The notes under the pieces were generated by a model. It had not been told where the DNA came from, searched no databases, and saw only the letters and a list, made by a program, of their open reading frames with translations. This document shows, one piece after another, positions 21,211 through 52,685 of a stretch of DNA of 64,000 bases. The stretch's first letter is position 1; every line of letters starts with the position of its first letter. The DNA is from a virus: IMG/VR virus record IMGVR_UViG_3300028840_004786. One strand, 5' to 3'. The translations under genes were made by a program, and so were the position numbers.

Positions 21211-21404
21211 TATACTTTACTCCTATCATAAGAACGTTCGATTTTATCAACATTAAAAACACGAGTTATTTTTTCTTTCGTAAAAACCCATTTTGCTTTA
21301 ACAAAAAGAAAGACCTGAAACAATCCACGCTTACAAATAATCCCTTGAGTCATCATACTCTCTGGATTTGAAATTCTTCCCTTTGTTATTAAGCATAAAC
21401 TCAT
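21210..21404 (-). CDS. hypothetical protein
   Basis: 64-aa ORF with an ATGA overlap to the upstream fibre-like gene. Confidence 0.4.
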   Translation of the reverse strand: MSLCLITKGRISNPESMMTQGIICKRGLFQVFLFVKAKWVFTKEKITRVFNVDKIERSYDRSKV

Positions 21405-22228
21405 ATCGTTGTAGTTGTACTCGTTGTAGTTGTACTCGTTGTAGTGGTTGTGGAAGCATAAACTCTTTCACAAATATATTCAACTTGCTGCTGTCCCGAC
21501 CACTGAGCCGTAGCCTGATAAGTTGCAACAAGATCAGCCCCTGTTGCTTGCGAAACTGGTTTATTATAAAGCCTCAACCTTGCCGAAGTTAACAATGATT
21601 GACCTTGATAAACAGTATATTGCTGTTGATCAATTTTAATATTCTCCTGCATCAATCCAAGTGCCCTTTTTAACTCTGTTTCCATATCAACAATAGAAGC
21701 ATCTATTGAAGATATAGAAACATTAATAGAGGAGATATTAGTATTAATTGTTGAAATATTAGTATTTATAGTCGATTGATCATTTTTTATATTTAATAAT
21801 GCATCACTTTCTTGTTGAGTCAAACCGCTCGTTCCAGTCTCAAGTGCAAAAGCATCGGCTGGTACGGTATCACGAACGTTAACAGTATAACCACCTTGTG
21901 TTTTTAACCATGGATCACCGCCACCATCAACGAGAAGATAAGCATTGATAAGATATAATGTATGATCTGCTTCGTATGGCCTCATAAGCCAACCGAATTT
22001 TAAAAAAACATATTTTCCAAGGTATCTAACATTTGGAATAATTGTGTTTCCACCAACTGGCTGATAGAACGGGAACTTAAACTTATTCAAAGTACTATTT
22101 ACTTTCCAGTCGTACTTTGCTGCGCTGTAAATATCCTTAGCAACGTCAAGTGTTAAGGTTCCGCCCACTGGAGCCGTTGTGACATACATTATCCTGTTGA
22201 TGGTATCATAGTCAATATGAGTTGCCAT
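21401..22228 (-). CDS. tail-fibre-like protein with C-terminal poly-Thr tail
   Basis: The N-terminal module shares NSTLNKFKFP with 22658-24559. Contains the repeat INTNISTINTNISSINVSISSIDASI and ends ASTTTTTSTTTTSTTTTI. Confidence 0.6.
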   Translation of the reverse strand: MATHIDYDTINRIMYVTTAPVGGTLTLDVAKDIYSAAKYDWKVNSTLNKFKFPFYQPVGGNTIIPNVRYLGKYVFLKFGWLMRPYEADHTLYLINAYLLVDGGGDPWLKTQGGYTVNVRDTVPADAFALETGTSGLTQQESDALLNIKNDQSTINTNISTINTNISSINVSISSIDASIVDMETELKRALGLMQENIKIDQQQYTVYQGQSLLTSARLRLYNKPVSQATGADLVATYQATAQWSGQQQVEYICERVYASTTTTTSTTTTSTTTTI

Positions 22229-22657: not shown

Positions 22658-24559
22658 TTACGTGGTTGTCGTCGTTGTAGTAGTTGTGGTTGTAGTGGTT
22701 CCAGGATTAAGATAGACACGCTCATCCGGTGCATTAACTGGAAATGAAAGCCCAGTGGTTGCAGTTATTGTAAATTCAGCAAATGTCCATTCACTTGCTC
22801 TTAACCCTTGGGCAACAATTACTACAGGTGCATCTTCACCAGAATCTCTTCCACCTTGAACATTATTGTCATAGTCAAAGTCAAACGATATACTTGACTG
22901 ATTAACGACACCTTGAATTGGGCTTGGCCCAGCATTATCATTTACAACAATCGCATCCAACGAATCAAATGGTTTTTCTTCAACCGTAACTGTGTCACCT
23001 GCTGTTTCATTAACCTGCGTACGACCAAGAACGTCATCATAGTCAACTGCCAATGTTGCAGGTGTTCCAGTCGCCTGTTTCAAACCATTGTTTGCCTCAT
23101 TCGTACTAAATCCAGCAATGGTGAAGTAATCATTAGCAGTCAAGTTACTAAAGTCACCATTTGATGCCGACGATAATGTTGCACTCGAGCCGGAGGCACC
23201 AGTAATTGAATAATCATCAGACGAATAAGCTCGAACATTCCTAAAATACATTCGATAAAGAGTGTTTGCATTTTTCTCGTCAACAAGATTATCACTGAAA
23301 ATCATGGATCCAGCTGCAACAAACGGATATGTTCTTTCAGTCGAAGTATTTGGAACGTCTTCACTATCCAAACCATAAGATGCCCCAACACCAACTGTAA
23401 TATCATGAAGAGCAATGTCGTTTGTAATGTTTGTATCAAAGTCATCAAAGCAAACTCCAGGCCAGCTATGAAGCGTATCACCAACATAGTAACAAAGCCG
23501 AACTGCAACCTCACCGTATACTGTCCCGTAACCATCGGTTTCTGGATCGTCGTTAATATTAGTGGATTTACGAAGTCGCTGTTGACAGAACTTATATATC
23601 TCATCTCTGTCGGGCCCAGTAGCCACGCCATTGTACTGCACTGCACGGTTAAACGCGTAGTAATTACTACCTATCTGCCGTTCACCAGGATAGGCTTCCC
23701 ACGTTGCTGTTCCACTAAACGAAGCCCATGGACCACTTTCTCCACCAGTAATCGTTCCGTCTCCAGTACAACGAGCCCAACGACCATCACCGTCCTGGAC
23801 AACATCATTAGTAACATAACTTTGAACTGCAGCAGGAGCAAACAATTGACCCTTGTAGTACTGGAGCTCCATATCTTGATAAGGATCATTTGCACCGTCG
23901 ATGTAAGCTTCCGTTGTTCCAGTATTTTTAATATCATCTTCATTTGAAAGTGGAAGCCTATAGGCAATATAAGTCAATGCCGAATAACCTTGCTCTGTCA
24001 ACAAGTTATAGTCATCGTAAGTGCGTTGCCACATCCGGAGATAACATTTCAAGAAATCGCGGAAGTCATTGCTTCCGCCATCAAAGATTTGAATTGCTTC
24101 ATCCAGAGGCCCAGTTTTATCAAAATCTGTTGTGTTTTGATCAAAGCCTTGTGTCTGTTGATAATTCGCCTGTTGATTATCATCGTATTGACCACCAAGC
24201 GAAATAATACAAGCATGCTCGGCACCATCTGTTTCCTGCCAGCCTGCATCACGCACAAGATCACGAGTTTGAGAATTCGCCGGACCCCAACCATATTGCC
24301 AAATAAACTTTGCCTCATAAATTGCCTTTATTGGAAACTTGAACTTATTAAGAGTTGAATTCGACTTCCATTCTTCTTTGAGAAAAGAATAGAGGCACTG
24401 CATAGTAACACCACTTTCAGAACCCGGATTGTTATCGTTCAAGTTTCCAGCAACACGTAGTTCTACAGTTTTCGCTGCTGTAACAATCGCGACTTCTTCG
24501 GTTGTTGGTGTACCATCCACATCCAATGTCAATTGATCAGGATCGACTATTTTAGCCAT
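22658..24559 (-). CDS. tail fibre / receptor-binding-like protein with C-terminal poly-Thr tail
   Basis: 633 aa. The N-terminal module is paralogous to 21401-22228. Ends NPGTTTTTTTTTTTTT. Confidence 0.6.
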   Translation of the reverse strand: MAKIVDPDQLTLDVDGTPTTEEVAIVTAAKTVELRVAGNLNDNNPGSESGVTMQCLYSFLKEEWKSNSTLNKFKFPIKAIYEAKFIWQYGWGPANSQTRDLVRDAGWQETDGAEHACIISLGGQYDDNQQANYQQTQGFDQNTTDFDKTGPLDEAIQIFDGGSNDFRDFLKCYLRMWQRTYDDYNLLTEQGYSALTYIAYRLPLSNEDDIKNTGTTEAYIDGANDPYQDMELQYYKGQLFAPAAVQSYVTNDVVQDGDGRWARCTGDGTITGGESGPWASFSGTATWEAYPGERQIGSNYYAFNRAVQYNGVATGPDRDEIYKFCQQRLRKSTNINDDPETDGYGTVYGEVAVRLCYYVGDTLHSWPGVCFDDFDTNITNDIALHDITVGVGASYGLDSEDVPNTSTERTYPFVAAGSMIFSDNLVDEKNANTLYRMYFRNVRAYSSDDYSITGASGSSATLSSASNGDFSNLTANDYFTIAGFSTNEANNGLKQATGTPATLAVDYDDVLGRTQVNETAGDTVTVEEKPFDSLDAIVVNDNAGPSPIQGVVNQSSISFDFDYDNNVQGGRDSGEDAPVVIVAQGLRASEWTFAEFTITATTGLSFPVNAPDERVYLNPGTTTTTTTTTTTTT

Positions 24560-24605: not shown

Positions 24606-26909
24606 TTACGTGGTAGTGGTTGTAGTAGTCGTTGTAGTCGACGTCGTTGTACAAGCATAAGTAACATTGGCATCCTTTCTTTGTTGTACAGGAATTGAAG
24701 CATCTTGATTCCCGAGTATTTCATCTTCGTATGCTATGAACTCATAACACACATGATGAATATGGATATCAACTGTTACTGGACCACCGTAAATATATGA
24801 ATAGTTAGTTTCGCCATTGGAACCTACATCCTCAACATGAAATATCTCAACGCTTCCTTCCATATAAGTTACTTCAGTTCCGGGTTTCAAGCCTGTTAAA
24901 GTATGAGTTCTCTGTACTGCCGGAATATATTGTGTACCATCATCCGCAGTAAAGTATTCAACAGTACCAGAACCTCTTTTTGCCAACCAAACACCTTCCG
25001 TCAAGTTGACATTTCTTTCCGTATAATATCCAGCCGCACCAGAATATAGTAATTGTGATTGCTCATCCTCACCCCAAATGACTATATCAAATATTTGACT
25101 ATAGGTATCTGGATCACTCGCCATAAAAGCAGCTAAATAATCATAAACAGTTTGTAACGATTTATTATCACAGTCAACAAGCCAAGTATATTCTTCGTAA
25201 AAGCCTGTTACATCAGCCTTCGCTGAAAATGAAGATACACTTCCAGTCAAAGTATAACTATCATTATCAACAAATTCAGTTCCATTCCAGGCCTTTAAAA
25301 CAAGAGTTCCAGAAGTAGCATCACCAAGATATTCTACTACAACACCATTCGCACCAGTTGTACTTTGAGTTATAGTCTCGCCAGCACTTGGAACACTACC
25401 CGTTCCTTGATCGTACTTAAGAACTTTTAATGGACGTGGATCGGTTTCACCTGTCGCATGGCGAGTCATAGTTATTCCACTTCCATTGCTCAAAGCAGTT
25501 GCTTGAGTTGTTTCAGAAACCCCAGTATCTGTTGTAAGCCCTATCGGCTGATCTATAGCTTCGGTTACAGTTAAGGCGCCAAGGAATGGGGAATAAGCGT
25601 GTTTATAAATATGAAGAGCAAAGTCACCACTTGTCTTGACATCAAGACCAACACCACCGTCATTAAATATTCTCTTTAGAATATCTACACTCCATTCTCC
25701 ATTTGAATCAGTGGCTCCATAATGCGGAACATTTTTATTTCTCGTTCCCTCGTATATATGGATTCTTGCTGTTTGTATTGCTGCACCAGCTGGGGTTGTC
25801 ACTATTGTGTCAAATGAAAATAACTCATGAACATATTCCTTTTTAGCATCAACACCGCCAGAAGTCGTTGTAGTTGTCGTACTTGCAAGAGATGCAGAAA
25901 AAAGTATATCATTTTGTGAAGAAATATCAGGATTCCAAGTTGGATTTACTACTTTCCATTTCTTATTATTATAAACCTGAATATATCTTTGCAAATTAAT
26001 AAACGAAACATTCTTGATAGTTATAGTGTCATCCACATCGTCATCAGAAGTAGTAAAACCATAACAATCAACAATATTTAATTCCTGAATATCAGTACTT
26101 CCATCAACCAATAAATAATCATTCGAAGTTCCTATTCCTTGTAATAGACTATCATATATTTCAATAACTCCAGTCATATCACAAGTATAGAGCCCTTTAA
26201 ATATCTTCGCTCTACGAAATACTACAGTCCCATTAAATTCCGTTTTATTATTTTTTACGCACGACATAAAGAAGTCATACAAATAAGCCAATCCACCACT
26301 TTGAATATCAAAAGCGAACTCTCCATCAACTGCTGGTGTCGGGACTATATAACCACCAGAAACAGGTTTTCCACCCGATAGAAATCCAACATACAGTGTT
26401 CCACCGCTGTAAACAATAATATCAGCTACGGTAGTACTACTATTATCTGCAGTCTCAATACTATGGCCGTCAAGTAAAGCTAATCCACCACCACTACTAA
26501 CTTCAATAATATCAGAGGCAGCCCAATCAGTAACTCTTTTCAAAAGTTCCTTGAAGGCATTTCCTTTACTATCCAAGTCCGTTGTTCCATATGGAATATG
26601 ATAAGTATCAGTTGAAGATGGTTGAACATCCCAATCTTCATGAACAGTACATGTAACAGGCCCACTTCCACTTTCAGCAATAATGTAACGAACTTCTTCA
26701 TCTGCATCACCCTTGCGAACATGGACAAGCCTCCCGACATAACTTGCAGTTCCATCTGTCGGAGGCCCAACAACATTCCCATTATTATTAGTGCCCATCG
26801 GATTTGAAAAAATTATTTCATCCGCTGCGGCAGAAGCTTGACTTGGTAATGCTTCACCAGTACTGTCTTTAGCATATGTAGTACAATCTAATGGATTGGC
26901 TATAGCCAT
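24606..26909 (-). CDS. large fibre/spike-like protein with internal and C-terminal poly-Thr tracts
   Basis: 767 aa, rich in Gly/Thr/Ser/Val (beta-rich). Internal STTTTTTSGG tract. Ends CTTTSTTTTTTTTTT. Confidence 0.55.
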   Translation of the reverse strand: MAIANPLDCTTYAKDSTGEALPSQASAAADEIIFSNPMGTNNNGNVVGPPTDGTASYVGRLVHVRKGDADEEVRYIIAESGSGPVTCTVHEDWDVQPSSTDTYHIPYGTTDLDSKGNAFKELLKRVTDWAASDIIEVSSGGGLALLDGHSIETADNSSTTVADIIVYSGGTLYVGFLSGGKPVSGGYIVPTPAVDGEFAFDIQSGGLAYLYDFFMSCVKNNKTEFNGTVVFRRAKIFKGLYTCDMTGVIEIYDSLLQGIGTSNDYLLVDGSTDIQELNIVDCYGFTTSDDDVDDTITIKNVSFINLQRYIQVYNNKKWKVVNPTWNPDISSQNDILFSASLASTTTTTTSGGVDAKKEYVHELFSFDTIVTTPAGAAIQTARIHIYEGTRNKNVPHYGATDSNGEWSVDILKRIFNDGGVGLDVKTSGDFALHIYKHAYSPFLGALTVTEAIDQPIGLTTDTGVSETTQATALSNGSGITMTRHATGETDPRPLKVLKYDQGTGSVPSAGETITQSTTGANGVVVEYLGDATSGTLVLKAWNGTEFVDNDSYTLTGSVSSFSAKADVTGFYEEYTWLVDCDNKSLQTVYDYLAAFMASDPDTYSQIFDIVIWGEDEQSQLLYSGAAGYYTERNVNLTEGVWLAKRGSGTVEYFTADDGTQYIPAVQRTHTLTGLKPGTEVTYMEGSVEIFHVEDVGSNGETNYSYIYGGPVTVDIHIHHVCYEFIAYEDEILGNQDASIPVQQRKDANVTYACTTTSTTTTTTTTTT

Positions 26910-27100
26910 TACTTATCCTTTATCTTGATTTTAAATTCTTTTTTAAGAATTTCAAGTTTTTCAGGAGCAAATTCTTTTTCTCCACGCATACATTTACTCA
27001 CATTTATAGAAGACATATCAAGTGCTTCAGCAAGAGCATTAAATGGAATCCGTTCGGCTTTTAATTTTTTCATTACCTGTTCAGTTATTTTAACTTTCAT
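26909..27100 (-). CDS. small helix-turn-helix-like protein
   Basis: The 63-aa sequence IPFNALAEALDMSSINVSKCMRGEK resembles an XRE-type HTH. Confidence 0.4.
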   Translation of the reverse strand: MKVKITEQVMKKLKAERIPFNALAEALDMSSINVSKCMRGEKEFAPEKLEILKKEFKIKIKDK

Positions 27101-27315
27101 TCTTTTTCTCCAGTAGTCATTTTACTCTTGCTAATTGTTCCAACTGTAAGCCTATGTTTTCCGAAGTCAAATTTCTTTGTTGCCCAAAAACCTGAATGCT
27201 CATCAGAACCTTCCGTATAAATGAGCAAGTTAACCATTATAAGTCCTTTTTTATGCTCCCTTAGAACTTCGTACATTTTATTCAGCATCTGATCCAATTG
27301 GTTACTGACAGGCAT
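27097..27315 (-). CDS. hypothetical protein
   Basis: 72-aa ORF coupled to its neighbours. Confidence 0.45.
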   Translation of the reverse strand: MPVSNQLDQMLNKMYEVLREHKKGLIMVNLLIYTEGSDEHSGFWATKKFDFGKHRLTVGTISKSKMTTGEKE

Positions 27316-27316
27316 C

Positions 27317-27889
27317 TCACCACCTCATAAAAAGTTTTTTCTGTCTCCAAATATGATAAACATAAAGTCCGGGCATCCTGTAATGCCTATAACCAGCCCG
27401 ATTAAGAGCTTGGCTATATTTATTATCTACACCGAGAAGTCTTTTCCTATTTTCATCAAACCCACCGCTTTTTCTCCATGCAGTTTTGTTAGTTAAAATC
27501 CAGAAACCCGACATTGCTCCTTTACATCTTTCAACTTTACTGCCGTACTCTTCGTAAAGTTTTCTTGCAAAAGAGAAATGGTCTTCAAGATTATTTGACT
27601 TTGGTGCATCTTTTGCTTTTTGTGCTGGGTTCCCTATTCTGTTTGTAACAGCCGATATCCAGCCGACAGGTTCACCCTTGAGTTGTTGAACAGCCGAACA
27701 GCACATTGTATACCAATGCTTATTAACAAGAAACAAGTCATGATCAATAAACAGAACCCATTCCGTTGTCGCTCTTTCCATTGCTCTATTATAAGCGCAT
27801 GCAAGCTGACCATTCAAGTCATATGGTATCTGTACTTGAATTGGTTCACGAATTGAAGAAACAGAATAAAATTTGTTGTAATTTTCCAT
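27317..27889 (-). CDS. glycosyltransferase family 2-like (GT-A)
   Basis: LACAYNRAMERATTEWVLFIDHDLFL matches the GT2 pattern (..A.N.g...a..e.i.flD.D). Confidence 0.6.
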   Translation of the reverse strand: MENYNKFYSVSSIREPIQVQIPYDLNGQLACAYNRAMERATTEWVLFIDHDLFLVNKHWYTMCCSAVQQLKGEPVGWISAVTNRIGNPAQKAKDAPKSNNLEDHFSFARKLYEEYGSKVERCKGAMSGFWILTNKTAWRKSGGFDENRKRLLGVDNKYSQALNRAGYRHYRMPGLYVYHIWRQKKLFMRW

Positions 27890-27891
27890 CC

Positions 27892-28575
27892 TTATCTCCT
27901 TTCAATATGTGAACTATCCTTAATTGGATAGTTTAAAAATTCCGACAGGCGTTTGCAAGTTCTTCCAGTTCTGCCGAGAAGATCATCCCTGAAATCAACC
28001 TGAAGAATTTTTAGTCTATTATAATAACCAACATAATAAAGGTAGTAATGACTCTTTCCATAATACTTCATAGACAATTCAACAAAGTGGTCTTTGTACT
28101 TTTCTTGATTACCCCTCTTTCTCATTGAATGCGCAATATCATCCGCATTTCTTCTCATCCAAATGATTCTCAAATCATTTAATAAATTAAGCTCTTTGAT
28201 AACTTCCATCCAAGGATAAAGAGTCAAAGAAGTTCTTGGGTCTTTCCAGCCCCAATTTTTAAATTCCGAGTTATATTCAATAATAAGTCCACGCATAATT
28301 TCGAGAACTTTATTATCTGCTTCACTTCCGTTCAATGGGTATATCATTGGTATTGCTGGAGAAAATGATTTAACTCTATAACCGTGCATTTTAAGAATCC
28401 TATCATTTATTCTTCTGAAACGGACATTCTCCCAAAATCCTTTTGGATTTTCTTTTATCGGTGGGGGATAGAATTCCTTTTTCTCTTCTCGACCCATAAC
28501 AATACCATTTTTATGTAAAAGCCCAGACATCGCCGATGTCCCGCTTCTGTGCATCCCAAGAACTACGACTATCAT
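27892..28575 (-). CDS. sulfotransferase-family protein
   Basis: N-terminal VVLGMHRSGTSAMSGLL (PAPS 5'-phosphosulfate-binding loop-like) followed by NPKGFWEN, as in bacterial sulfotransferase-family proteins. Confidence 0.55.
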   Translation of the reverse strand: MIVVVLGMHRSGTSAMSGLLHKNGIVMGREEKKEFYPPPIKENPKGFWENVRFRRINDRILKMHGYRVKSFSPAIPMIYPLNGSEADNKVLEIMRGLIIEYNSEFKNWGWKDPRTSLTLYPWMEVIKELNLLNDLRIIWMRRNADDIAHSMRKRGNQEKYKDHFVELSMKYYGKSHYYLYYVGYYNRLKILQVDFRDDLLGRTGRTCKRLSEFLNYPIKDSSHIERR

Positions 28576-29120
28576 AATAACTCCCGCGTAATTTTAGTTA
28601 TATGCCATATCGGGCCAGTAATTTTAACCCGATCACCAAACTTCTCATCTACTGCTTCAATGACACCATAACTTGGTTTATTAGTATAATCATCACCACA
28701 AAAAAGGCCATTCACTTTTAGTTTCGGCCACCAAACTTCAATATCTCGTTTAACGAATTCATAACCATGATTAGCGTCAATAAATATAAAGTCAAATTCA
28801 TAATCAGAAAATAACTCAGCCGCATCCTCACTTTTCATTTGTAAAGTTATTACTCGTTCACCAAAAGATTTTATATTTTCATCAAATCTTCTTCTTACTT
28901 TATTCCAATCAGCGTTATATATCTTTCCTTTCTTATTTGGTGAATGCGATTTAAATTCTTCATTATCTTCCCAAATATCCACGCAAACCAAACCCTTAAG
29001 AAGTGGAAATGATTCTAATAAAACTTTGGAGGTATCACCTTCAAATACACCAATCTCAGCCCCATTATGGTGCGATCTATTCTCCAACAGCCTTTTTAAT
29101 ATCTTGCCGTTCCTCGACAT
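28572..29120 (-). CDS. class I SAM-dependent (O-)methyltransferase, Methyltransf_24/TylF-like
   Basis: Contains GAEIGVFEGDTS (motif I) and FDFIFIDANHGYEFVKRDIEVWWPKLKVNGLFCGDDY. Start at 29120 (GGGAGG upstream) or 29135. Confidence 0.6.
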   Translation of the reverse strand: MSRNGKILKRLLENRSHHNGAEIGVFEGDTSKVLLESFPLLKGLVCVDIWEDNEEFKSHSPNKKGKIYNADWNKVRRRFDENIKSFGERVITLQMKSEDAAELFSDYEFDFIFIDANHGYEFVKRDIEVWWPKLKVNGLFCGDDYTNKPSYGVIEAVDEKFGDRVKITGPIWHITKITRELL

Positions 29121-30315
29121 CTTGCCTCCCTTCAAAATCAGGCTTAATATCTTTTCTCCAAGTACTCGTAGTCAATATTTTATCCATAATGATTGAATCT
29201 TTATATGGAATAATTGATTCCATAATTGAAGAAAGTTCCTTTTCATCTACAAGAATTGGATTAAGCCCTAATTCCAAAAATTTTTTATTATCCAGCGAAA
29301 GAATATTTTCTGCCATTTCTAATCTTGGATTCTTATAATATCTTATCTCCGTTCCGTTTATAGAAGATACTCTTTCGGCAAGTTGTTTCAAGTTCAATTG
29401 CTCTGTTGTTTGATTAAATATCTTTACTCCTTCACCCTTTTCAGGTGGGTTATTAACTGCTTTATCTATGCATCTTAAGGTGTCACGGATATGTATAAAA
29501 GCACGAGTCTGTCCACCAGTCCCATATACTGTAAGCGGATGACCTGCAATAGATTGAACCATAAACCGATTCAACACCGTTCCAAAATCACCATCATAGT
29601 CAAATCGATTTATAAGATCATTATGCATACTCGTTTCTTCAGTTTCAAGACCCCAAACAATCCCCTGATGCAAATCGGTTATACGAAGTAAATCATTTTT
29701 ACTGTAATATTGAAACATTATTCCATCAATTACTTTTGTCATATGATAAATACTTCCAGGCTGGGGCGGAAACATTATCTTCCTTGTTATCTCATTTTTA
29801 TTTCTATCCGCCATTACAGCATCAATGTAACCTTCTGGAATAAGAAAGTCTTCATTCCCACCATATCCATAAACTCCAGTAGAACCGAGGTGAATAAGAT
29901 GTGAATCAAGTCCAAGTGAAACAAGAGCACATAAAACATTGTGCGTTGAAAGAATATTATTGCGCACAGTATACAGCTTGTGAGCCGCATCTTTCATACT
30001 ATAAGGCGCAGCTCTTTGCTTTGCGAAGTGAATAATTATTTCGGGTTTTTCTTTTCTAAGAACATCCTTCAATCCATTATAATTTGAAGCGATATCTACA
30101 CGTTTGAAGGTGAAATTACTATGAGTCAAGCGACGCCACCTTTTAACCCTTTTTTCCATCGTCTGTATTGGTGTTAAACTCGGGCATTCAAGTTCGGCCT
30201 CAATCGTTCTTCGACTAAAATTATCCACGATGACGACAGTGTAGTCACGAGCGCTGAAATACAGGCTTGTAGGCCATCCACAATATCCGTCACCGCCAAG
30301 AACCATTATCTTCAT
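29077..30315 (-). CDS. sqdB: UDP-sulfoquinovose synthase (SQD1/SqdB/Agl3 family SDR)
   Basis: Collinear matches to remembered SQD1 motifs: VLGGDGYCGW, VDNFSRR, SLTPI, RW, HFAKQRAAPYSM, HLGSTGVYG, EGYI, YHMTKV, TDLHQGIVWGLETEET, NRFDYDGDFGTVLNRFMVQSIAGHPLTVYGTGGQTRAFIHIRDT and FNQTTEQ. Confidence 0.85.
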   Translation of the reverse strand: MKIMVLGGDGYCGWPTSLYFSARDYTVVIVDNFSRRTIEAELECPSLTPIQTMEKRVKRWRRLTHSNFTFKRVDIASNYNGLKDVLRKEKPEIIIHFAKQRAAPYSMKDAAHKLYTVRNNILSTHNVLCALVSLGLDSHLIHLGSTGVYGYGGNEDFLIPEGYIDAVMADRNKNEITRKIMFPPQPGSIYHMTKVIDGIMFQYYSKNDLLRITDLHQGIVWGLETEETSMHNDLINRFDYDGDFGTVLNRFMVQSIAGHPLTVYGTGGQTRAFIHIRDTLRCIDKAVNNPPEKGEGVKIFNQTTEQLNLKQLAERVSSINGTEIRYYKNPRLEMAENILSLDNKKFLELGLNPILVDEKELSSIMESIIPYKDSIIMDKILTTSTWRKDIKPDFEGRQDVEERQDIKKAVGE

Positions 30316-31133
30316 AATCCTGCCTCCTTTTTAAACTTTTCGACACAATCATCTTTTGCAAGTTTATGAACGTTTCCAGTCCAAATAATATCACCCTTCT
30401 TATTTCTTCCAGGCAATCCAAAAGACAAGGGTAATGTTCCATAATTTAGCTTTCGCTCAACCTCCTTAAAAGCAAGCCAACAGCTTGCTTGGCCATAACC
30501 AATAGGTCTTTCTAATGGCGGAACTTTATCAATGTAGTGAATCCATCGATCAAAGAAAAGTCGAACATCATTTGCTGGTTTAATCAAAATACAGTCAATT
30601 GTTATTCGGGCTTTTACTATATTATGTCCCGGACGAAGTTTCAAATAAATATTAACATCTTCCAACATTTTTGGAACCATGTCGAGTGGTTTCCTAAATA
30701 AGGTATCTATATCAAAATGGGCAATATATTCCAAATTAAATCCCGCCCACTTCGGTGACTCATTCTCCGGTATTTTCCAAGAGTACAATAACTTATTTAA
30801 CGATTTTACTCTATCATCACCAGCTATCATTAGCTTCCATACCTTATTTTTATTACTCACATACCTCCCCTCGCATTGTTTTTTAAACGTTTGAAGCTGT
30901 TTTAATGTTACCCCAGCCTTTAAAGCTAATCGTTTCATATTTAAAGGCTGGTTATTGATGTGAAGTAATTCTCGCGGATAACTGGAATACAATAATTCCA
31001 TATCTTCAAAAGATAAACTCCTACCCTCCAGCCAGACAGGTAAATAGTAAGGGGCTGATACCATGCGAAGACTTTTGAGAAATACTTCACCCATCTTAAC
31101 AAATCCGTTTGTTAAATAAGAATGTACTAACAC
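30312..31133 (-). CDS. hypothetical protein, possibly a nucleotide-sugar transferase (DxD-like FDIDT)
   Basis: 273-aa ORF inside the glycan cassette with an AHFDIDTLF motif. The functional call is weak. Confidence 0.3.
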   Translation of the reverse strand: MLVHSYLTNGFVKMGEVFLKSLRMVSAPYYLPVWLEGRSLSFEDMELLYSSYPRELLHINNQPLNMKRLALKAGVTLKQLQTFKKQCEGRYVSNKNKVWKLMIAGDDRVKSLNKLLYSWKIPENESPKWAGFNLEYIAHFDIDTLFRKPLDMVPKMLEDVNIYLKLRPGHNIVKARITIDCILIKPANDVRLFFDRWIHYIDKVPPLERPIGYGQASCWLAFKEVERKLNYGTLPLSFGLPGRNKKGDIIWTGNVHKLAKDDCVEKFKKEAGL

Positions 31134-32416
31134 TATTCCACCTCCTTTTCCACAGGCTGAAGTGGAACTGTGTTAGCAAGCCTTGATGCTTCTTCAAGAA
31201 GTGGTTTAAATTGAGTAAACCATATCCTTTCAAAGCTAAATGCCCAACGATGTCTAACATCAGGAAGTCGCGGAACTATTTCCCGCGATGCAAGTAAATC
31301 AAAATAGATATTTTCATCCGGATGATAGTTAACCATTTGAAAGTCACCAGTTTTTCCGTCTTCTCTTCCAGGAGTCTTGAAGCTAAAATCAACATAGATA
31401 GCCCTGTAATCTTTACGTGCTAATTCCTGTAAACAAGGCAAGTTCTTATTAAGGATAAGGAGATTATCCGTTATTTGAGCCTCCTGAAAAGCATTGCCAG
31501 TTGTCTCACGCCAGCTGGAGAAAACGAAGATATTTGATATCTTTAAAAGATCACGAATAACTTTTCTCGGCATCGGTTTATAAGTATCAATATCGTGCGT
31601 GAACATATAGTCTTCGTTTTCAATTAAGCCTTTACTTTCCATGAAAGCCTTTTTTTCTTTGATCTCCATCTGAACTTTTCTTGCATTCGCATTCGCGAAA
31701 ACAATTCCGACAGAAATTCCAATTCTTTTAAGTGCCGACATTACATTGATTACACCGTCTATTCCCTTCGCGTCCATGCGAGTACTACAATGGGGGAAGA
31801 TACAAACGGCTTCCTTATTCCATAATTGAAGGTTGTGAATAATCTTCACACTAAATGGATGCATATCAAAAAAGACACGTGGATCCTTTGGATTATGAAC
31901 GACCCTTATATTATCCATCGTTGTCTCGTACATTTGCTGAAGGTTCGGTGCCTCGGCCTCATTAAGATAGACAAGAAAACTTCTATCCATCATAGTATAA
32001 CGAAGTGATTCTGGATGACGAAGTGTTCCAGGTCTTTGTGTCCACGATGAATGAATCCAATGACACCACCATGCTTTGATCTCCTTTGCGGCATTTCTCA
32101 TTGCTTGGTTATAAGCAAGAAAGTTCCCTTTCCGTTGATAGATAAGATCGGCAGTCAACACAACATCAAAGTCATGAAGTAATTCAATATACTGTTCTGT
32201 AAATTGCTCAACCTTAAATTCAAACGGACGGCTTCCGGGGATTGTCTTCAGTATTGAATATTGGTTTGGATACAACCCGTCCGGACAATTTTTGGCAGTA
32301 AAAAAAGTGAAGTCAATTCCGAAGTACTTCATCATGACTGCACGTTCGTGCCATCCAACTGCAAGTGCATAGCTCGGGGCGAAACTTTGAAAATGTGATA
32401 AGATTGCTACCTTCAT
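31133..32416 (-). CDS. GT-B glycosyltransferase (GT4/GT1-like)
   Basis: 427 aa. VFSSWRETTGNAFQEAQITDNLLIL resembles the C-terminal E..G....EA motif of GT4 enzymes. It is the first gene of the cassette. Confidence 0.5.
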   Translation of the reverse strand: MKVAILSHFQSFAPSYALAVGWHERAVMMKYFGIDFTFFTAKNCPDGLYPNQYSILKTIPGSRPFEFKVEQFTEQYIELLHDFDVVLTADLIYQRKGNFLAYNQAMRNAAKEIKAWWCHWIHSSWTQRPGTLRHPESLRYTMMDRSFLVYLNEAEAPNLQQMYETTMDNIRVVHNPKDPRVFFDMHPFSVKIIHNLQLWNKEAVCIFPHCSTRMDAKGIDGVINVMSALKRIGISVGIVFANANARKVQMEIKEKKAFMESKGLIENEDYMFTHDIDTYKPMPRKVIRDLLKISNIFVFSSWRETTGNAFQEAQITDNLLILNKNLPCLQELARKDYRAIYVDFSFKTPGREDGKTGDFQMVNYHPDENIYFDLLASREIVPRLPDVRHRWAFSFERIWFTQFKPLLEEASRLANTVPLQPVEKEVE

Positions 32417-32487
32417 TTTTTTCTCCTTTCATCTTTTATAGTTACGGAACTTAATGAACCGTACAAAATAAAAACAAATGTTGAGTT

Positions 32488-32516
32488 ATTATAACACTTT
32501 AAATAAGTAATGACAA
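32488..32516 (-). promoter_or_regulatory. near-consensus sigma70-type promoter for the glycan cassette (TTGTCA-N17-TATAAT with TG extension)
   Basis: Minus-strand reading: TTGTCA (32516-32511), a 17-nt spacer, then TATAAT (32493-32488) preceded by TGT. It lies in the 107-nt gap upstream of 32416. Confidence 0.55.
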
Positions 32517-32523
32517 TACATCT

Positions 32524-34140
32524 TTAACTTGTGTTTAACGAACCACTTGCAATATACCAAGGAGGTTCCATTGGTGTTTCAGTCGTTCCAGTTGTAGTGG
32601 TTGCAGTCGTAGTGGTAGTGGTTGTAGTGGTTGTTTGGTAATCAGCTGGCGCTGGGGCATCATTAGTTAAACCAACACCAATAGAAAAGTAATCAACACT
32701 TGTCGCATCACCATTATAACTACCTAATCCAACATTACCGCTGACACCGGAATGAGCAGAATCTGTTACTTGAATCCCCCATGTTCCAGGTTCATCACTT
32801 GGTTGCCCTTGCCAAACTTTTGCTTTTAAATTATTTCCACGTACTTGAAACCGAACCCAATACCAATAGTTTTCAAAAGTTTTACTACCAGTCGCACCTA
32901 TTTGACTTGCTGAATTACTTACCCATTTATAAATTTTGAAATTATCATTACTTGGATATAATCTTAACTCATATGCATTTTTGTTACTATTACCACCTAC
33001 TTCACGAACAACTATTTTAAAATAATCCTGCCCAGCAATTGGATAAAGATCACCAAATTGAACTTTAGCAAGTATATCTACATTTTCTGCAACACCTATA
33101 TCATTCCATCTTGCATAATAGTGTCCATAAGTACTATGATCAATAAGAAGATATTTTCCACCATACTGGCCTCCATCATCTTTAACTGTTATACTTGAAA
33201 CAGGTGACTCCCATAATTCTGTCCAATCAGAGGGCGACTGATCAGCAGTATATTCATTAAAGTTAGTCCAGTAATCTTCTTCGGTTGTCGTAGATGTAGT
33301 TGTTCCAGTAATAGTTGTTGTGGTAAATGTAGTTGTAGTGGTTGTACTGGTTGTTGTAGTGGTTGTTATATAACCAGATGGAACAAGTATAGGCCAATCA
33401 TCTGAATTGCTTTCAGCAAGAAAATGATCACAGAAAGTATCCGCATTAAAAGTAATAACCCCAACTTCACCAGAAGAAGTAATTGGGGAGCCATCAGTAT
33501 AATCAATATCCCATGTTCCAGGTTCGGAATCTTGTTTTCCCCAAACACGAATTTTTATAACGGACCCTTGTGCACGAAGCCTCACCCAATACCAACGATC
33601 CGCTGTTATTGTTTTTGAAGCACTTGTCAGTCCAGTATTTACTCCATTATTATATCTTCGCAAAATAATATCATCATTGGCAACATCAAGATGTGCAACA
33701 TATCCGGTTTCACTACCTCCAGCACCGCTTATTCTGCACCCAACACCACCAGCCAGTGTAGCAAAAGAATTCTTTGCCTGGACGAGGGCAAGTACTTCAA
33801 TATCTTTCTTACTTATCACATCATTGATGACAGCCACTTTTGCATTACTGGATATATCAAGACTGAGACTTTTATCCTTACCGACAGCTTCAACAGTAGT
33901 ATCAACATTTACTGTATCCCAGCTTTCAGTCCAGCCAGATGGAGGACTACCAGTTCCCATCCCACTAAAATCTTCTTCCCATTCATGTGTAGTAGTGGTG
34001 GTCGTAGTGGTGGTCGTAGTGGTGGTCGTAGAAGAAGTCTGGAACTCAACCTGACCAAGAATTTGTGTAGCTTCCTGAAAAGGACCTTCCTCATACTCAA
34101 CCTGACCAAGAATTTGTGTAGCTTTTTGGATATCAGCCAT
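32524..34140 (-). CDS. fibre/decoration protein with two LamG/concanavalin-like modules separated by poly-Thr linkers
   Basis: N-terminal duplication ATQILGQVEYEEGPFQE/ATQILGQVEF. Three Thr tracts. Duplicated modules WTESWDT...WYWVRLRAQGSVIKIRVWGKQDSEPGTWDI and WTELWES...WYWVRFQVRGNNLKAKVWQGQPSDEPGTWGI. Confidence 0.55.
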   Translation of the reverse strand: MADIQKATQILGQVEYEEGPFQEATQILGQVEFQTSSTTTTTTTTTTTTTTHEWEEDFSGMGTGSPPSGWTESWDTVNVDTTVEAVGKDKSLSLDISSNAKVAVINDVISKKDIEVLALVQAKNSFATLAGGVGCRISGAGGSETGYVAHLDVANDDIILRRYNNGVNTGLTSASKTITADRWYWVRLRAQGSVIKIRVWGKQDSEPGTWDIDYTDGSPITSSGEVGVITFNADTFCDHFLAESNSDDWPILVPSGYITTTTTTSTTTTTTFTTTTITGTTTSTTTEEDYWTNFNEYTADQSPSDWTELWESPVSSITVKDDGGQYGGKYLLIDHSTYGHYYARWNDIGVAENVDILAKVQFGDLYPIAGQDYFKIVVREVGGNSNKNAYELRLYPSNDNFKIYKWVSNSASQIGATGSKTFENYWYWVRFQVRGNNLKAKVWQGQPSDEPGTWGIQVTDSAHSGVSGNVGLGSYNGDATSVDYFSIGVGLTNDAPAPADYQTTTTTTTTTTATTTTGTTETPMEPPWYIASGSLNTS

Positions 34141-34157
34141 TAATCAATCTTTTTATT

Positions 34158-35216
34158 TTAAGTAGTCGTTGTAGTTGTTGTGGTTGACGAAGTACTTGTC
34201 ATTTGAATTGCACGGGTTCCAATTTCAATCGCATTTATATCTGCCTCTTGCCAAGCCTCGGAATCATCGGGGTTTACAGCCCATATCTTTCTAAAATTTG
34301 CAACCGCAATTCCTGGAGTAAATCGCCCACTATAATAATTAGATCCATTTACTCTAATCGCCAACTTTTGTTTATTTGGGGCTGGGTCACCTTCGTATAG
34401 TAATCTTCCTTGAAGCTGTAACGCTTTTACTTTTCCAACATTTCCAGTCATATCAGCACAAGCGAATGTAGCTAATTCCCCCGGAACATTTGTTGATATA
34501 TAATCAGAATCACTATATGGTATTTCATCAACACACGCATATGGGTCTCCAGCACTTGCATCCCATTCACCAGTAGTTCCAGCCCCACTTATTTGAAGTT
34601 TTTGTATACGAGTATTTCCCGGCCATTCGCTATCATCAATGACTACATCATCAAACTCACTTTGATAGTTATCAACACCATTGGCGCCAATTCTTACCTT
34701 TTTAATATTCTCAAGTCCCGCCGTAGTATCCCCACTATAATCACATTCCAGTGGTGTCTGATTATCCAGCTTTACTTGAAATATTCCACCAGTATTTAAT
34801 GGTTTATAACGTACTTGAAGTAAATGAACAGTTCCAGGTGTAATTTCAGTTGCCCCAGTTTCAAGAATGGTTCCTGAATTTTGCGCCCCAAGCATAAGCC
34901 GAACATAAAAATATGTTGAGCCATCATAGTAAAAAAACAAAGAACCTATTGCAGTAAGTGCTGAATCATAAAAACATATGGTTCCGGGTCCATTTCCACT
35001 TCGAACTACCGGATAAATTTTTAATGCAACATATAATTCGCTATATGTTTGATCCAGTGTTATATCGCCATAAGCATATCCAGAATTAAATTTCATATCA
35101 TAGGCTCCACTGAATCCAGCCATAGCACCGGCATTTACTTGAAGGCCACTCTGGGAAGTAAATAATAGAGTATTTACATTCCCATGTTCACCGCCTTCTA
35201 TAAATATTCTTGCCAT
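34158..35216 (-). CDS. virion protein (jelly-roll-like) with C-terminal poly-Thr tail
   Basis: 352 aa, ending MTSTSSTTTTTTTT. Confidence 0.5.
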   Translation of the reverse strand: MARIFIEGGEHGNVNTLLFTSQSGLQVNAGAMAGFSGAYDMKFNSGYAYGDITLDQTYSELYVALKIYPVVRSGNGPGTICFYDSALTAIGSLFFYYDGSTYFYVRLMLGAQNSGTILETGATEITPGTVHLLQVRYKPLNTGGIFQVKLDNQTPLECDYSGDTTAGLENIKKVRIGANGVDNYQSEFDDVVIDDSEWPGNTRIQKLQISGAGTTGEWDASAGDPYACVDEIPYSDSDYISTNVPGELATFACADMTGNVGKVKALQLQGRLLYEGDPAPNKQKLAIRVNGSNYYSGRFTPGIAVANFRKIWAVNPDDSEAWQEADINAIEIGTRAIQMTSTSSTTTTTTTT

Positions 35217-35227
35217 CTTTAAACTCC

Positions 35228-35764
35228 TTACACCGTCGTTGTAGTGGTAGTGGTTGTAGTGGTTGTGGTGGTTGTAGTTGTCGAAGTACTCATACCTTCA
35301 GCATCTGGACGATACATAATAATATTCCAACTTATATCCTGTAAAACAGAATCAGCCGGATTTGGTGCATACAATTCAAGTAAATCGCCATTATAAAATG
35401 TCACATCTGACGATACAGTAAATGCACCAAAGTTGTGCCCAGGATTTGTTAATATTGTACCTATCGATGACCCATTTCTCTTTAGGGTAAAAGTCTTCGG
35501 CCCATCACCTGGAGGCGTTCCAATATACAATTTACTTCCCGGCGCATTAGCTTTTAAAACCATATAACGACCAATAACTGCCCTCATTATAAGGCCATTA
35601 CTATTCGGCGTATCTCCAAGATATTGACCGGAATAATCATAGTACTTTGGAAGATGAAGTGCTTTAATTGCAGCATCAAGCTCACCAAGTGGTGCACCCA
35701 TATCAGCTTCCTTAAATTCTGTTGTTCCATCAACATATGCTGTATGATAGAATTCACTCATCAC
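35228..35764 (-). CDS. small fibre-like protein with C-terminal poly-Thr tail
   Basis: 178 aa, ending STSTTTTTTTTTTTTTTTV. Confidence 0.5.
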   Translation of the reverse strand: MMSEFYHTAYVDGTTEFKEADMGAPLGELDAAIKALHLPKYYDYSGQYLGDTPNSNGLIMRAVIGRYMVLKANAPGSKLYIGTPPGDGPKTFTLKRNGSSIGTILTNPGHNFGAFTVSSDVTFYNGDLLELYAPNPADSVLQDISWNIIMYRPDAEGMSTSTTTTTTTTTTTTTTTTV

Positions 35765-52489: not shown

Positions 52490-52685
52490 CTATCTCTCCA
52501 ACGTCAATTACTTTTACTTTTCCCATACGAATAATAAACGCGCAATTCGCATTTCCACACTCAAATTCAAGTATGTTATTCCAAGAACCAATCCTGTCAA
52601 CATGGATATACCAAACTTGACACCCACATTCAGGGCAAGCCGCAACTACTTGCAACGAATTACTTATGTTTATTACTTCGCCCAT
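52467..52685 (-). CDS. zinc-ribbon protein
   Basis: CPECGC...CGNANC motifs. 72 aa. Confidence 0.45.
   Translation of the reverse strand: MGEVINISNSLQVVAACPECGCQVWYIHVDRIGSWNNILEFECGNANCAFIIRMGKVKVIDVGEIDESKESS

Follow-up and report, generated by a model that had tools for sequence, protein, structure and literature searches.

A glycan cassette coupled to phage tail-fibre genes and its association with Ser/Thr tags suggest O-glycosylation of virion proteins with a sulfoquinovose-containing glycan

In mycobacteriophages, glycans have been located at the C-termini of capsid and tail-tube subunits (Freeman et al., 2023, cited in PMC12619734). In the outline given in these sources, this modification, which is of the type described for Che8, Corndog and Myrna (Freeman et al., 2023, Cell Host Microbe), is the closest precedent for the locus analysed here, which is part of a window of 64,000 nucleotides, the whole stretch of DNA under study, from an uncultured tailed phage. 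Both systems encode their glycosyltransferases on the phage, and we predict that they also share C-terminal acceptors on structural subunits including the tail tube and a modification by soluble enzymes in the cytoplasm. In contrast to the mycobacteriophage systems as they are outlined there, the putative acceptors are long homopolymeric Thr/Ser runs on at least ten proteins, most of them fibres, whereas the major capsid protein is untagged, and the gene complement is extended by a predicted synthase for a sulfonated nucleotide-sugar, a sulfotransferase and a methyltransferase. The glycosyltransferase families constitute separate clades that are all but restricted to phage-sized contigs, and in place of actinobacteria, bacteria from the environment, possibly from sediment, are the probable hosts.

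Two further systems show related features. Chloroviruses and giant viruses, which infect eukaryotic hosts and carry atypical N-linked glycans on their major capsid protein, decorate their own particles with the products of self-encoded nucleotide-sugar and glycosyltransferase genes, as is predicted here, although without homopolymeric tags and without sulfoquinovose. In serine-rich repeat adhesins, a GT-B protein of the GT4 type (GtfA/B) initiates cytoplasmic O-glycosylation on long Ser/Thr-rich tracts, and the glycan is then extended by GT-A/GT8 enzymes (GlyE and other GT8 proteins), a division of labour that we also predict for this phage. The latter relationship is, however, confined to the level of the fold. 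An accessory Sec export system is absent, the acceptors would be virion proteins with short terminal tags instead of kilodalton-scale repeats and the sugar chemistry is unlike.

The cassette comprises six tightly coupled ORFs on the minus strand, all of which were recovered at the positions assigned to them in a preliminary description of the sequence (27317-32416; Table 1), with junctions of -1, -4, -44, -4 and +2 nt, where the 44-nt overlap is between the genes of the methyltransferase and the SQD1 homologue. Gene calls made independently for this contig, in the Logan sample SRR6963591, are concordant, including the start of the 182-aa methyltransferase at 29120. The coupling does not end with the GT2-like gene but continues across two small ORFs as far as the gene of the 767-aa fibre protein (+1, -4, -1 nt), and no terminator-like sites close the cassette on either side. 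Its portrayal as 'moron-like' is thus not sustained, which is also reflected in a GC content inside the range of the window, in the near confinement of the GT8-like gene to phage-sized contigs, with a single match in 185,579 genomes, and in some relatives whose first gene is not preceded by a promoter gap. In contrast, the near-consensus promoter in one of the few real gaps of the late arm has withstood scrutiny. The site (TTGTCA-17-TGtTATAAT), with 11 of 12 matching positions, ranks first in a 16-kb scan, where it is the only one among the top sites with an extended -10 element, and it is one of three sites with at least 11/12 matches in the whole 64 kb. It resides in a gap of 107 nt, one of four exceeding 100 nt in the stretch from 19 to 57 kb, and the -35/-10 pair is found at the same position in three other loci (L052, L053, L004). 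Collectively, the observations of the preliminary description are confirmed, while its interpretation is partly supported.

Table 1. Coordinates of cassette genes, tagged proteins and regulatory elements in the window.
Feature	Position	Strand	Remarks
427-aa GT-B (GT4-like) glycosyltransferase	31133..32416	-	phrog_2170 at 1e-8; profile and structure matches
273-aa GT-A (GT8-like) transferase	30312..31133	-	invariant HFDID motif (D141, D143)
412-aa extended SDR of the SQD1/SqdB/Agl3 type, homologous to UDP-sulfoquinovose synthase	29077..30315	-	NF041015, PDB 1qrr matches
182-aa class-I SAM methyltransferase (Methyltransf_24)	28572..29120	-	PF13578 at 2.7e-17, 64 bits
227-aa PAPS-type sulfotransferase (Sulfotransfer_3)	27892..28575	-	PF13469 at 32.2 bits, gathering score 27
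190-aa short GT2-like GT-A protein	27317..27889	-	phrog_14179 at 2e-8; invariant D49-x-D51
Two small coupled ORFs (72 aa, 63 aa)	26909..27315	-	bridge cassette to 767-aa fibre gene; second with weak HTH-like match
275-aa protein, C-terminal Ser/Thr tag	21401..22228	-	
633-aa fibre-like protein, C-terminal T13 tag	22658..24559	-	
767-aa fibre-like protein, internal ST6S run and C-terminal T3ST10 tag	24606..26909	-	
538-aa fibre-like protein, two repeated domains, four poly-Thr linkers/tags	32524..34140	-	
352-aa fibre-module protein (phrog_6368), tag appended past conserved domain end	34158..35216	-	
178-aa tail fibre protein (phrog_7049), C-terminal T16 tag	35228..35764	-	
137-aa protein immediately after tape-measure gene, C-terminal Ser/Thr tag	40877..41290	-	
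190-aa major tail protein (phrog_807), C-terminal Ser/Thr tag	44386..44958	-	
59-aa basic protein immediately after major capsid gene, C-terminal T14 tag	46792..46971	-	
200-aa head-module protein, C-terminal Ser/Thr tag	52685..53287	-	
Sigma-70-type promoter TTGTCA-N17-TATAAT, extended -10 (TGt)	32488..32516	-	8 nt past stop codon of 538-aa gene
Putative 5'-UTR stem-loop GTACGG...CCGTAAC	32441..32464	-	between promoter and Shine-Dalgarno site
Shine-Dalgarno site GGAG	32423-32426	-	downstream of stem-loop

The profile searches place the ORFs of the cassette in carbohydrate, sulfo-sugar, methyl-transfer and sulfo-transfer families, and thus do not speak against a role in carbohydrate chemistry. 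The 412-aa protein is related to SQD1, SqdB and Agl3, which act in the synthesis of plant and cyanobacterial sulfolipids and of the N-glycan of Sulfolobus. It matches the structure of SQD1 (PDB 1qrr) over its full length (4.7e-94), with about 50% identity to the plant enzyme, and it shares the NAD-binding motif GGDGYCGW and the motif Y-H-x2-K (Tyr-His-x2-Lys). Unlike these enzymes it is phage-encoded, its match to NF041015 (4.9e-98) reaches 328.6 bits, which is below the NCBI equivalog cut-off of 575, and its fingerprint reads STG instead of the [ST]MG of the family, with TMG, TTG or TAG found in sister phage sequences. As for Agl3, the predicted product would end on a glycoprotein and not on a lipid (PMC8987622), whereas its linkage would be to the oxygen of Thr/Ser and thus neither N-linked nor to diacylglycerol. 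The sulfotransferase contains the motifs GMHRSGTS (5'-PSB-like) and RRNADDIAHS (3'-PB-like), the RSGTS part of which is retained in 17 homologues.

Among the transferases, the 427-aa GT-B protein shows profile matches to BshA, GlgM, MshA and PglA, and its AF2 model (pLDDT 95) has MshA, GlgM, BshA and WaaG as top Foldseek neighbours. It contains an invariant E304-x7-E312 motif, its closest named cellular relative is only 25% identical, and the presence of its gene tracks Ser/Thr tags across loci, making it a candidate for the initiating protein O-glycosyltransferase. The DxD-like motif noticed in the following gene has proven to be invariant and to belong to a GT-A/GT8-like protein, whose structural neighbours include GlyE and giant-virus glycosyltransferases. 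This gene always adjoins the SQD1-like gene, also in loci that do not contain the GT-B gene, and its product is a candidate sulfoquinovosyl transferase. The GT2-like assignment of the last gene was retained with a correction, since the Pfam GT2 profile is matched only from about position 66 onwards and the protein is therefore N-terminally short; it is the most conserved member of the cassette, and all of its 12 homologues match PF00535.

The identity to plant SQD1 and the presence of a GT4-like GT-B protein as first gene, which we take to be in the same CAZy family as SQD2 and SqdX, would also be compatible with an auxiliary metabolic module for SQDG, where a SqdB-like synthase and a SqdX/SQD2-like enzyme spare phosphate or reshape host membranes, and a viral UDP-sulfoquinovose synthase has once been interpreted as an auxiliary metabolic gene. 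This earlier reading (PMC7785012) appears highly unlikely for our locus, where the constant partner of the SQD1 gene is the GT8-like and not the GT-B gene, the latter encoding a protein that is distant from its nearest named cellular relative. The sulfotransferase, the methyltransferase and two GT-A proteins have no role in SQDG synthesis, the window bears no sign of a phototrophic host and a Syntrophales genome harbours one untagged relative of the phage as a prophage.

Both neighbours of the cassette (538 aa and 767 aa) carry poly-Thr tracts, as described earlier, but the feature extends far beyond them, with 14 Ser/Thr tracts in 10 late-arm ORFs between 21.4 and 53.3 kb, nine of which are located at the extreme C-terminus, and none among the ORFs of the plus-strand early arm. 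Besides six fibre-like proteins, the major tail protein is tagged as well. PHROG profile matches stop ahead of the tags, which thus reside outside conserved domains. The mixed use of ACN codons (ACA/ACC/ACT/ACG) argues for selection at the amino-acid level and against slippage. Among 2.9 million viral contigs, 44 stretches read (ACN)12-TAA at a C-terminus, which marks such an ending as rare. Cassette genes were found in the examined flanks of none of 160 viral loci selected solely by poly-ACN runs, and poly-Thr is therefore not specific to the cassette.

The cassette, with its gene order mostly kept, recurs in some 15 further contigs of phages, and those structural genes that flank it encode poly-Thr, poly-Ser or (TS)n tags. 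Six-gene versions with 35-77% amino-acid identity are found in L002, L003, L004, L006, L052, L053, L075, L080, L081, L090 and others, all of them with tagged neighbours and some of these cassette-bearing phages having a different, GTA-like tail module, while variants that retain the GT-B gene have poly-Ser (L063, L067) or (TS)n tags (L065) next to them. When de-replicated loci with a minimum length of 8 kb were compared, a Ser/Thr run of at least 8 residues was present in 14 of the 20 that contain the GT-B gene and in 2 of the 17 that do not (Fisher p = 6.5e-4), a value that overstates independence as the loci are phylogenetically related. Conversely, the tag of the 352-aa protein is shared by only the three closest of its 83 homologues, the other 80 ending untagged at ...IEIGVKAxA, and in four loci with untagged homologues, one of which belongs to a prophage relative whose tail genes are in the same order, both cassette and tags are absent. 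The proposal that tagged virion proteins are the preferred acceptors thus receives comparative support, because cassette and tags travel together across divergent phages and because untagged fibre homologues sit in loci devoid of the cassette. A second group of loci contains the GT8-like and SQD1-like genes without the GT-B gene and without tags, implying that sulfoquinovose glycans can have other acceptors. In L055/68/83, L056/62/86 and L087, the cassette adjoins replication genes and no tags are found there, the structural genes being outside the sequence covered.

The latter arrangement beside replication instead of fibre genes, and the occurrence of tagless GT8-like and SQD1 loci within larger glycan clusters, could be reconciled with a cassette that remodels a glycoconjugate of the host envelope (LPS, capsule, S-layer or glycolipid) during infection, for example to block superinfection or to prevent re-adsorption of released virions, with poly-Thr serving as flexible linkers or spacers. 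It is common for phages to alter the surface glycans of their hosts by means of glycosyltransferases (PMC12619734), and a sigma-70-type promoter would permit expression independent of late transcription. We still consider such remodelling unlikely, since the six cassette proteins contain no membrane-span-like segments, no gene for a flippase, polymerase, lipid-carrier (polyprenyl-phosphate) transferase or ligase is found near the cassette and its translation is coupled to fibre genes. It would also leave the joint gain and loss of tags and GT-B gene unexplained, and the near absence of the GT8-like family from cellular genomes would be unexpected for a host-glycan pathway borrowed from the host.

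We assign only the slimmest of chances to the glycosylation of phage DNA, in which a sugar-carrying hypermodified base would confer evasion from restriction. Hypermodification with diverse glycans by phage glycosyltransferases is known from the work summarized in PMC12619734 (Pyle et al., 2024), and the phage does encode proteins of nucleotide metabolism, among them ThyX and a fusion of the Pol III alpha subunit with a UDG domain. However, there is no hydroxymethylase or other base-modifying gene among the ORFs scanned, the cassette is located in the late structural arm in coupling with fibre genes and its link to the tags would not be accounted for. To our knowledge, sulfonated, sulfated or methylated sugars on DNA are without precedent.

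Homology and co-occurrence throughout instead suggest a phage-encoded O-glycosylation of the virion, to which we give about an even chance, where six soluble enzymes would place sulfoquinovose-containing, sulfated and methylated glycans onto short homopolymeric Ser/Thr tags of many structural proteins. Judged by its homology, the SQD1 homologue would convert host UDP-glucose and sulfite to UDP-sulfoquinovose. As suggested by co-occurrence, the GT4-like enzyme would act in the cytoplasm, either ahead of assembly or while it proceeds, and initiate O-glycosylation on the Thr/Ser runs. The GT8-like protein, in light of its constant pairing with the SQD1 gene, would transfer sulfoquinovose, the short GT2-like protein would add, or help to add, a further sugar and, based on their families, the sulfotransferase (with PAPS) and the methyltransferase (with SAM) would decorate the glycan. 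We would expect the result to be a mucin-like brush of strongly anionic glycans on tail tube, head-associated protein and fibres, which might shield the virion, keep it soluble or mediate its adhesion to particles or to polysaccharide of the host. From the sigma-70-type promoter, host RNA polymerase would supply the enzymes together with the coupled downstream fibre genes. The putative stem-loop in the 5'-UTR, whose outer stem is kept in L052 and L053 while the inner stem is variable, is a weak candidate for an additional element.

For the complete statement, that a self-contained phage system would O-glycosylate Ser/Thr tags on virion proteins (runs of poly-Thr, poly-Ser or (TS)n) with a sulfated and methylated glycan containing sulfoquinovose, the sequence evidence leaves the balance about even. 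We place higher confidence in a narrower claim, which is limited to the glycosylation of tagged virion proteins by the cassette. The six minus-strand genes reported in the preliminary description are all present at the positions listed in the table below, in agreement with independent gene calls on the same contig (Logan SRR6963591). Their junctions amount to -1, -4, -44, -4 and +2 nt, which confirms the tight coupling described earlier, but this coupling does not end at the GT2-like gene and instead runs on via two small ORFs into the 767-aa fibre gene. A near-consensus promoter had been proposed to precede the cassette, and we find it in an upstream gap of 107 nt, one of four gaps exceeding 100 nt between 19 and 57 kb. 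No other sigma-70-like site scores as well in a 16-kb scan, and across the whole window only two further sites reach 11 of 12 matches or more, one located at 61556 and the other within a gene. A -35/-10 pair is found in the same position in three relatives (the contigs L052, L053 and L004), and three others (L002, L003 and L006) are devoid of such a gap upstream of the cassette. The site at 61556 heads the minus-strand arm just upstream of the gene of a 208-aa HTH protein, and its -35 hexamer is identical to that of the cassette promoter. The 5'-UTR that separates the cassette promoter from the ribosome-binding site contains a stem (GTACGG...CCGTAAC) conserved in comparison with L052 and L053; the length of the inner stem differs in the two relatives and the evidence of covariation is weak, with three or four sequences available.

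Coordinates of the features discussed in the window
Feature	Position	Strand	Description
DNA polymerase III alpha fusion	4830-8213	+	1127 aa
Fibre gene	24606-26909	-	767 aa, downstream of the cassette
GT2-like gene	27317-27889	-	190 aa
Sulfotransferase gene	27892-28575	-	227 aa
Methyltransferase gene	28572-29120	-	182 aa
UDP-sulfoquinovose synthase (SQD1) homologue	29077-30315	-	412 aa
GT8-like gene	30312-31133	-	273 aa
GT-B gene	31133-32416	-	427 aa
5'-UTR stem	32441-32464	-	
Cassette promoter	32516-32488	-	TTGTCA-17-TGtTATAAT
Fibre-like gene	32524-34140	-	538 aa, upstream of the cassette
Fibre-module gene	34158-35216	-	352 aa, tagged
Rejected methyltransferase candidate	51866-52489		207 aa
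HTH protein gene	60858-61484		208 aa
Promoter of the minus-strand arm	61556-61527	-	TTGTCA-18-TATAAT

The 412-aa protein is, by its sequence, a clear homologue of UDP-sulfoquinovose synthase. In a phmmer comparison with the plant enzyme SQD1 (PDB 1qrr, 4.7e-94), residues 2-388 align with residues 3-384 of the chain and thus over the full length, the N-terminal NAD-binding motif GGDGYCGW is identical, and the similarity is that of an extended SDR. NF041015 is by far the best-matching family (4.9e-98, 328.6 bits, below the curated equivalog cut-off of 575), with GalE as runner-up at 50 bits. Within the catalytic fingerprint of UDP-sulfoquinovose synthases, [ST]MG...Yx3K (PMC8987622), the protein retains the Tyr, His and Lys (IYHMTKV; Y-H-x2-K) and its first motif reads S-T-G, with Thr in place of Met. 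Since sister phage sequences carry TMG, TTG or TAG together with an intact YHxxK, the Met position varies within the clade. In light of the score below the cut-off and of this variable motif, we consider it probable, rather than certain, that the protein is an active synthase, which would convert UDP-glucose and sulfite into UDP-sulfoquinovose. No PAPS reductase or other sulfite-supplying gene was found among 20 ORFs scanned in the early arm. A scan of viral contigs with the single sequence of the homologue retrieved nothing, and the loci were recovered only by alignment-based scans. Full-text literature searches yielded a single prior mention of such a synthase in a virus, interpreted there as an auxiliary metabolic gene (PMC7785012). 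In one variant cassette (L063, 11874-13046), the product of the SQD1-like gene no longer contains the catalytic Ser/Thr and Tyr, its motifs reading VGAVG and VFDLSK. A distant GT8-like gene adjoins a distant SQD1-like SDR (TTGEYD, YHCSK) in IMGVR_UViG_3300021511_000003 (L057/L092), which at 223 kb has the size of a jumbo phage; this pair is located inside a long run of co-oriented genes, with no Ser/Thr tags within the 20 kb examined.

The first enzyme of the cassette is, as judged from its predicted structure, a GT-B glycosyltransferase of the GT4 type with two Rossmann domains. The 427-aa protein matches phrog_2170, its own profile matches BshA, GlgM, MshA and PglA, and a Foldseek search with its AF2 model (pLDDT 95) identifies MshA, GlgM, BshA and WaaG at E-values of about 1e-12 to 1e-10. 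The glutamates of its C-terminal E-x7-E motif (E304, E312) do not vary across 39 sequences, and the protein scores 15.1 bits against PF00534, below the gathering score of 26.4, with several homologues carrying a precomputed match to this family. The gene that follows had been left as unknown except for a DxD-like motif, and the structure search proposed for it has now provided a probable identity: the model of the 273-aa protein (AF2, pLDDT 93) shows a GT-A fold whose best Foldseek matches are glycogenin, LgtC, the Skp1 galactosyltransferase AgtA, GlyE and LARGE1 (E-values of about 1e-8 to 1e-6, TM 0.5-0.57), and its viral structural neighbours are glycosyltransferases from giant viruses and phages. 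The protein is GT8-like by predicted fold only, with no sequence match in Pfam, NCBIfam or PHROGs and a weak match to PF03407 in only 5 of 38 members of its family. D141 and D143 of its DxD motif are invariant in these 38 sequences, and HFDID is invariant in all 84 metagenomic proteins of the family, which bear almost no informative names. About ten cluster representatives (P0336, P0337, P0339 and similar proteins of 466-515 aa) are fusions in which some 220 aa C-terminal to the GT8-like domain resemble a class-I methyltransferase by eye, with one weak methyltransferase match as the only result in Pfam; other proteins (558 and 627 aa) contain the GT8-like domain twice in tandem.

The remaining three enzymes would modify or extend the glycan. 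The 182-aa protein is assigned by Pfam to the class-I methyltransferases (Methyltransf_24). The 227-aa protein has the sequence features of a PAPS-dependent sulfotransferase, as it matches PF13469 (Sulfotransfer_3) with 32.2 bits against a gathering score of 27, over positions 2-216 of 216, and contains the PAPS-binding-like motifs RSGTS (5'-PSB) and R-x3-D-x3-S (3'-PB), both kept in 17 homologues. The 190-aa protein is a short GT2-like enzyme with an invariant DxD, for which all of 12 homologues match PF00535, only from about profile position 66 on. Sequence searches of the PDB with these three proteins returned nothing significant, the E-values of 0.09-0.7 for SunS providing no evidence, and none of the six cassette proteins contains a membrane-span-like segment. 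A 207-aa ORF elsewhere in the window, considered as another methyltransferase, was dropped as a Pfam scan gave no match.

A six-frame scan of the window identified 14 Ser/Thr runs in ten ORFs, all of them in the late arm (21.4-53.3 kb) and none in the early arm. In nine of the ten, the run is located at the extreme C-terminus. The tagged proteins comprise the major tail protein (phrog_807), a basic protein of 59 aa encoded directly 3' of the capsid gene, a 137-aa protein 3' of the tape-measure gene, a 200-aa head-module protein and six fibre-module proteins. The tail tube carries a tag, which the major capsid protein lacks. The tags sit past the conserved domains, with PHROG profiles stopping short of them, and Pfam scans of the tagged structural proteins gave no matches. 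Slippage at simple repeats was rejected as origin of the tracts because each of them is written in a mixture of the four ACN codons, which argues for selection on threonine. Among homologues of the 352-aa fibre-module protein, 80 of 83 end at a conserved ...IEIGVKAxA, and a tag is found only in the closest three, namely the protein itself, P0196 and P0197; the source contig of the latter has a length of 39,131 nt, as has the cassette contig L053. The 538-aa protein contains an internal duplication, in which a domain of about 200 aa matching the C-terminal portion of phrog_24476 is present twice, with poly-Thr linkers before and after each copy. On L006 (3824-7066), three tandem paralogues of the 352-aa protein (353, 357 and 359 aa) each carry a terminal Ser/Thr tag of their own.

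Relatives of the cassette were recovered by alignment scans with the GT8-like and GT-B families in IMG/VR, JGI metagenomes, Logan, ENA and one NCBI assembly. Their usual gene order is that of the window, with the last two genes inverted in L002 and L003, two contigs that share replication genes with the window phage but contain a different tail module resembling gene transfer agents. Wherever structural genes flank the cassette, these bear poly-Thr tags, and variant cassettes with a GT-B gene adjoin poly-Ser (L063, L067), (TS)n (L065) or short STTTT tails (L066, L072). Among de-replicated loci of at least 8 kb, a Ser/Thr run of at least 8 is present in 14 of 20 with a GT-B gene compared to 2 of 17 without (Fisher p = 6.5e-4, for loci that are related rather than independent), and one of the two tagged loci counted as negative, L079, ends at the 5' end of the cassette. 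Conversely, four loci with untagged homologues of the 352-aa protein, the prophage locus L133 among them, contain neither cassette genes nor Ser/Thr runs. In loci of the L055, L056 and L087 types, the cassette adjoins replication genes, and the DNA retrieved covers this part of the genome rather than the structural genes. The preference of the preliminary description for virion proteins as acceptor is strengthened by the co-occurrence of cassette and tags across loci, but poly-Thr is not exclusive to the cassette system: in 160 viral loci selected only for poly-ACN runs, no cassette gene was found within flanks of about 7 kb, a length that would miss a cassette located further away; poly-Thr thus also occurs outside of this system. 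Other viruses may combine similar tags with different enzymes or with none. The main alternative, by which the cassette would remodel glycolipids or polysaccharides of the host envelope, is in view of the co-occurrence of cassette and tags considered unlikely. That the cassette would serve to glycosylate phage DNA appears extremely improbable. In 35 of the 160 poly-ACN loci (L136-L212 and others), the run forms a C-terminal tag of an ORF, and (ACN)11 runs without a cassette gene nearby were found in at least 120 IMG/VR contigs, several giant-virus MAGs among them.

The distribution of the glycosyltransferases across these loci suggests a division of labour in the glycosylation of the tags. In 58 metagenome loci, the GT8-like gene nearly always adjoins the SQD1-like gene, and both are also found in a second group of loci that carry neither a GT-B gene nor tags, as part of larger glycan clusters with sulfotransferase and methyltransferase genes. 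Because this pairing persists without GT-B and tags, the 273-aa enzyme is the best candidate for the sulfoquinovosyl transferase, whereas the presence of the GT-B gene tracks that of the tags, which makes the 427-aa enzyme the best candidate for starting glycosylation on Ser/Thr runs. In the glycosylation of serine-rich-repeat adhesins, a GT4-type initiator is followed by GT8 extenders, a logic that this proposed division of labour would resemble. Synthesis of the sulfolipid SQDG would instead call for a synthase coupled to a GT4 lipid glycosyltransferase, and although both folds are present, the coupling in the 58 loci is to the GT8-like rather than the GT-B gene. On the whole, we regard such a role as very improbable. 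An example of the second type of sulfoquinovose glycan cluster is L110, which contains GT2, GT1, GT8-like, sulfotransferase, SQD1 and methyltransferase genes; within this cluster (632-2617), a 661-aa NAD-dependent epimerase/dehydratase is split by an intein with a LAGLIDADG domain.

The cassette had been described as moron-like, a view that our data do not sustain. It has its own promoter, but there is no terminator-like site at either end, it is coupled to the next fibre gene, its GC content of 0.34-0.385 is within the range of the window, and it is conserved across the phage clade, with absence from one prophage relative (L133). The GT8-like family counts 315 representatives among 1.84 billion protein clusters, and a scan of 185,579 species genomes with its alignment gave a single match, located on a contig of 9.7 kb that had been binned to a Woesearchaeota MAG. 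The GT-B family is found on contigs of up to about 103 kb, and the nearest named cellular relative of the GT-B protein is 25% identical. Recent acquisition as a moron is disfavoured by the near-confinement of these families to phage-sized contigs, by the GC content and by the absence of terminators.

Together, cassette and tags would constitute a variant of an already known kind of system, the glycosylation of phage virions, with a chemistry that is predicted. The observation itself, as made in the preliminary description, is confirmed and extended. To our knowledge, virion glycosylation has been demonstrated experimentally in bacteriophages essentially only for mycobacteriophages, where it alters recognition by antibodies. 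As in this mycobacteriophage type, phage glycosyltransferases are here accompanied by Ser/Thr C-terminal extensions on structural subunits. The closest precedent is provided by mycobacteriophages whose capsid and tail-tube subunits are glycosylated at their C-termini (Freeman et al. 2023, as cited in PMC12619734); in the window phage, the major tail protein carries a tag and the major capsid protein is untagged. Full-text literature searches revealed no link between phage poly-Thr tags and glycosylation. In a broader and more tentative proposal, to which we assign somewhat less than an even chance, a clade of environmental phages would possess a portable system to tag and glycosylate, in which short encoded poly-Thr, poly-Ser or (TS)n tags could be added to any virion protein and read by a glycosyltransferase known almost only from phage contigs, thereby coating the whole particle, including tail tube, head accessory protein and fibres, with a sulfonated, sulfated, methylated and mucin-like sulfoquinovose glycan. 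On this proposal, the coat would be without precedent both as a sulfo-glycan of a bacterial virus and as an O-linked sulfoquinovose glycoprotein. If the proposed reading is true, virion glycosylation would extend to unrelated environmental phages, probably from sediments, and its acceptors would be specified by an explicit code of homopolymeric Ser/Thr tags, so that glycosylated virion proteins could be predicted from the genome alone. Sulfoquinovose, sulfation and methylation would join the chemistry of phages, which would count among the sulfoquinovose producers in anoxic sediments. A probable function would also emerge for two protein families that comprise about 100-300 known members and bear almost no informative source names, and the six genes with a tag of about 13 residues would offer a compact tool for producing sulfo-glycoproteins in bacteria.

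The window (64 kb) represents part of the genome of a tailed phage, whose total size is about 88 kb. Its plus-strand arm (about 0-18 kb) encodes replication proteins, including a Pol III alpha-UDG fusion, gp32-like, RecA-like and SbcCD-like proteins, a 5'-3' exonuclease and ThyX, and its minus-strand arm, from about 61.5 kb down to 19 kb, encodes the large terminase, portal, scaffold, major capsid protein, major tail protein and tape measure, followed by a run of large fibre-like genes. A DNA similarity search with the cassette against cultured phages found no relatives, and the portal proteins of Pelagibacter and Rhizobium phages share no more than about 27% identity with that of the window phage. 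The phages of the cassette clade are probably environmental and from sediments. tRNA genes, sought as a clue to the host, were not found in the window, and the only such clue for this phage group comes from the prophage relative L133 (NCBI GCA_020047475.1, contig JAHZTK010000586.1). This prophage, which lacks tags as well as cassette, shares with the window the order of its homologues of the 1258-, 376- and 352-aa genes and is integrated beside serS and murJ; SerRS and MurJ of its genome belong to clusters (90% identity) in which those members that have a name carry the annotation Syntrophales. In the early arm of the window, the Pol III alpha protein combines PHP, NTPase and finger domains with a C-terminal domain of the uracil-DNA glycosylase superfamily (residues 971-1104), which is an unusual fusion.
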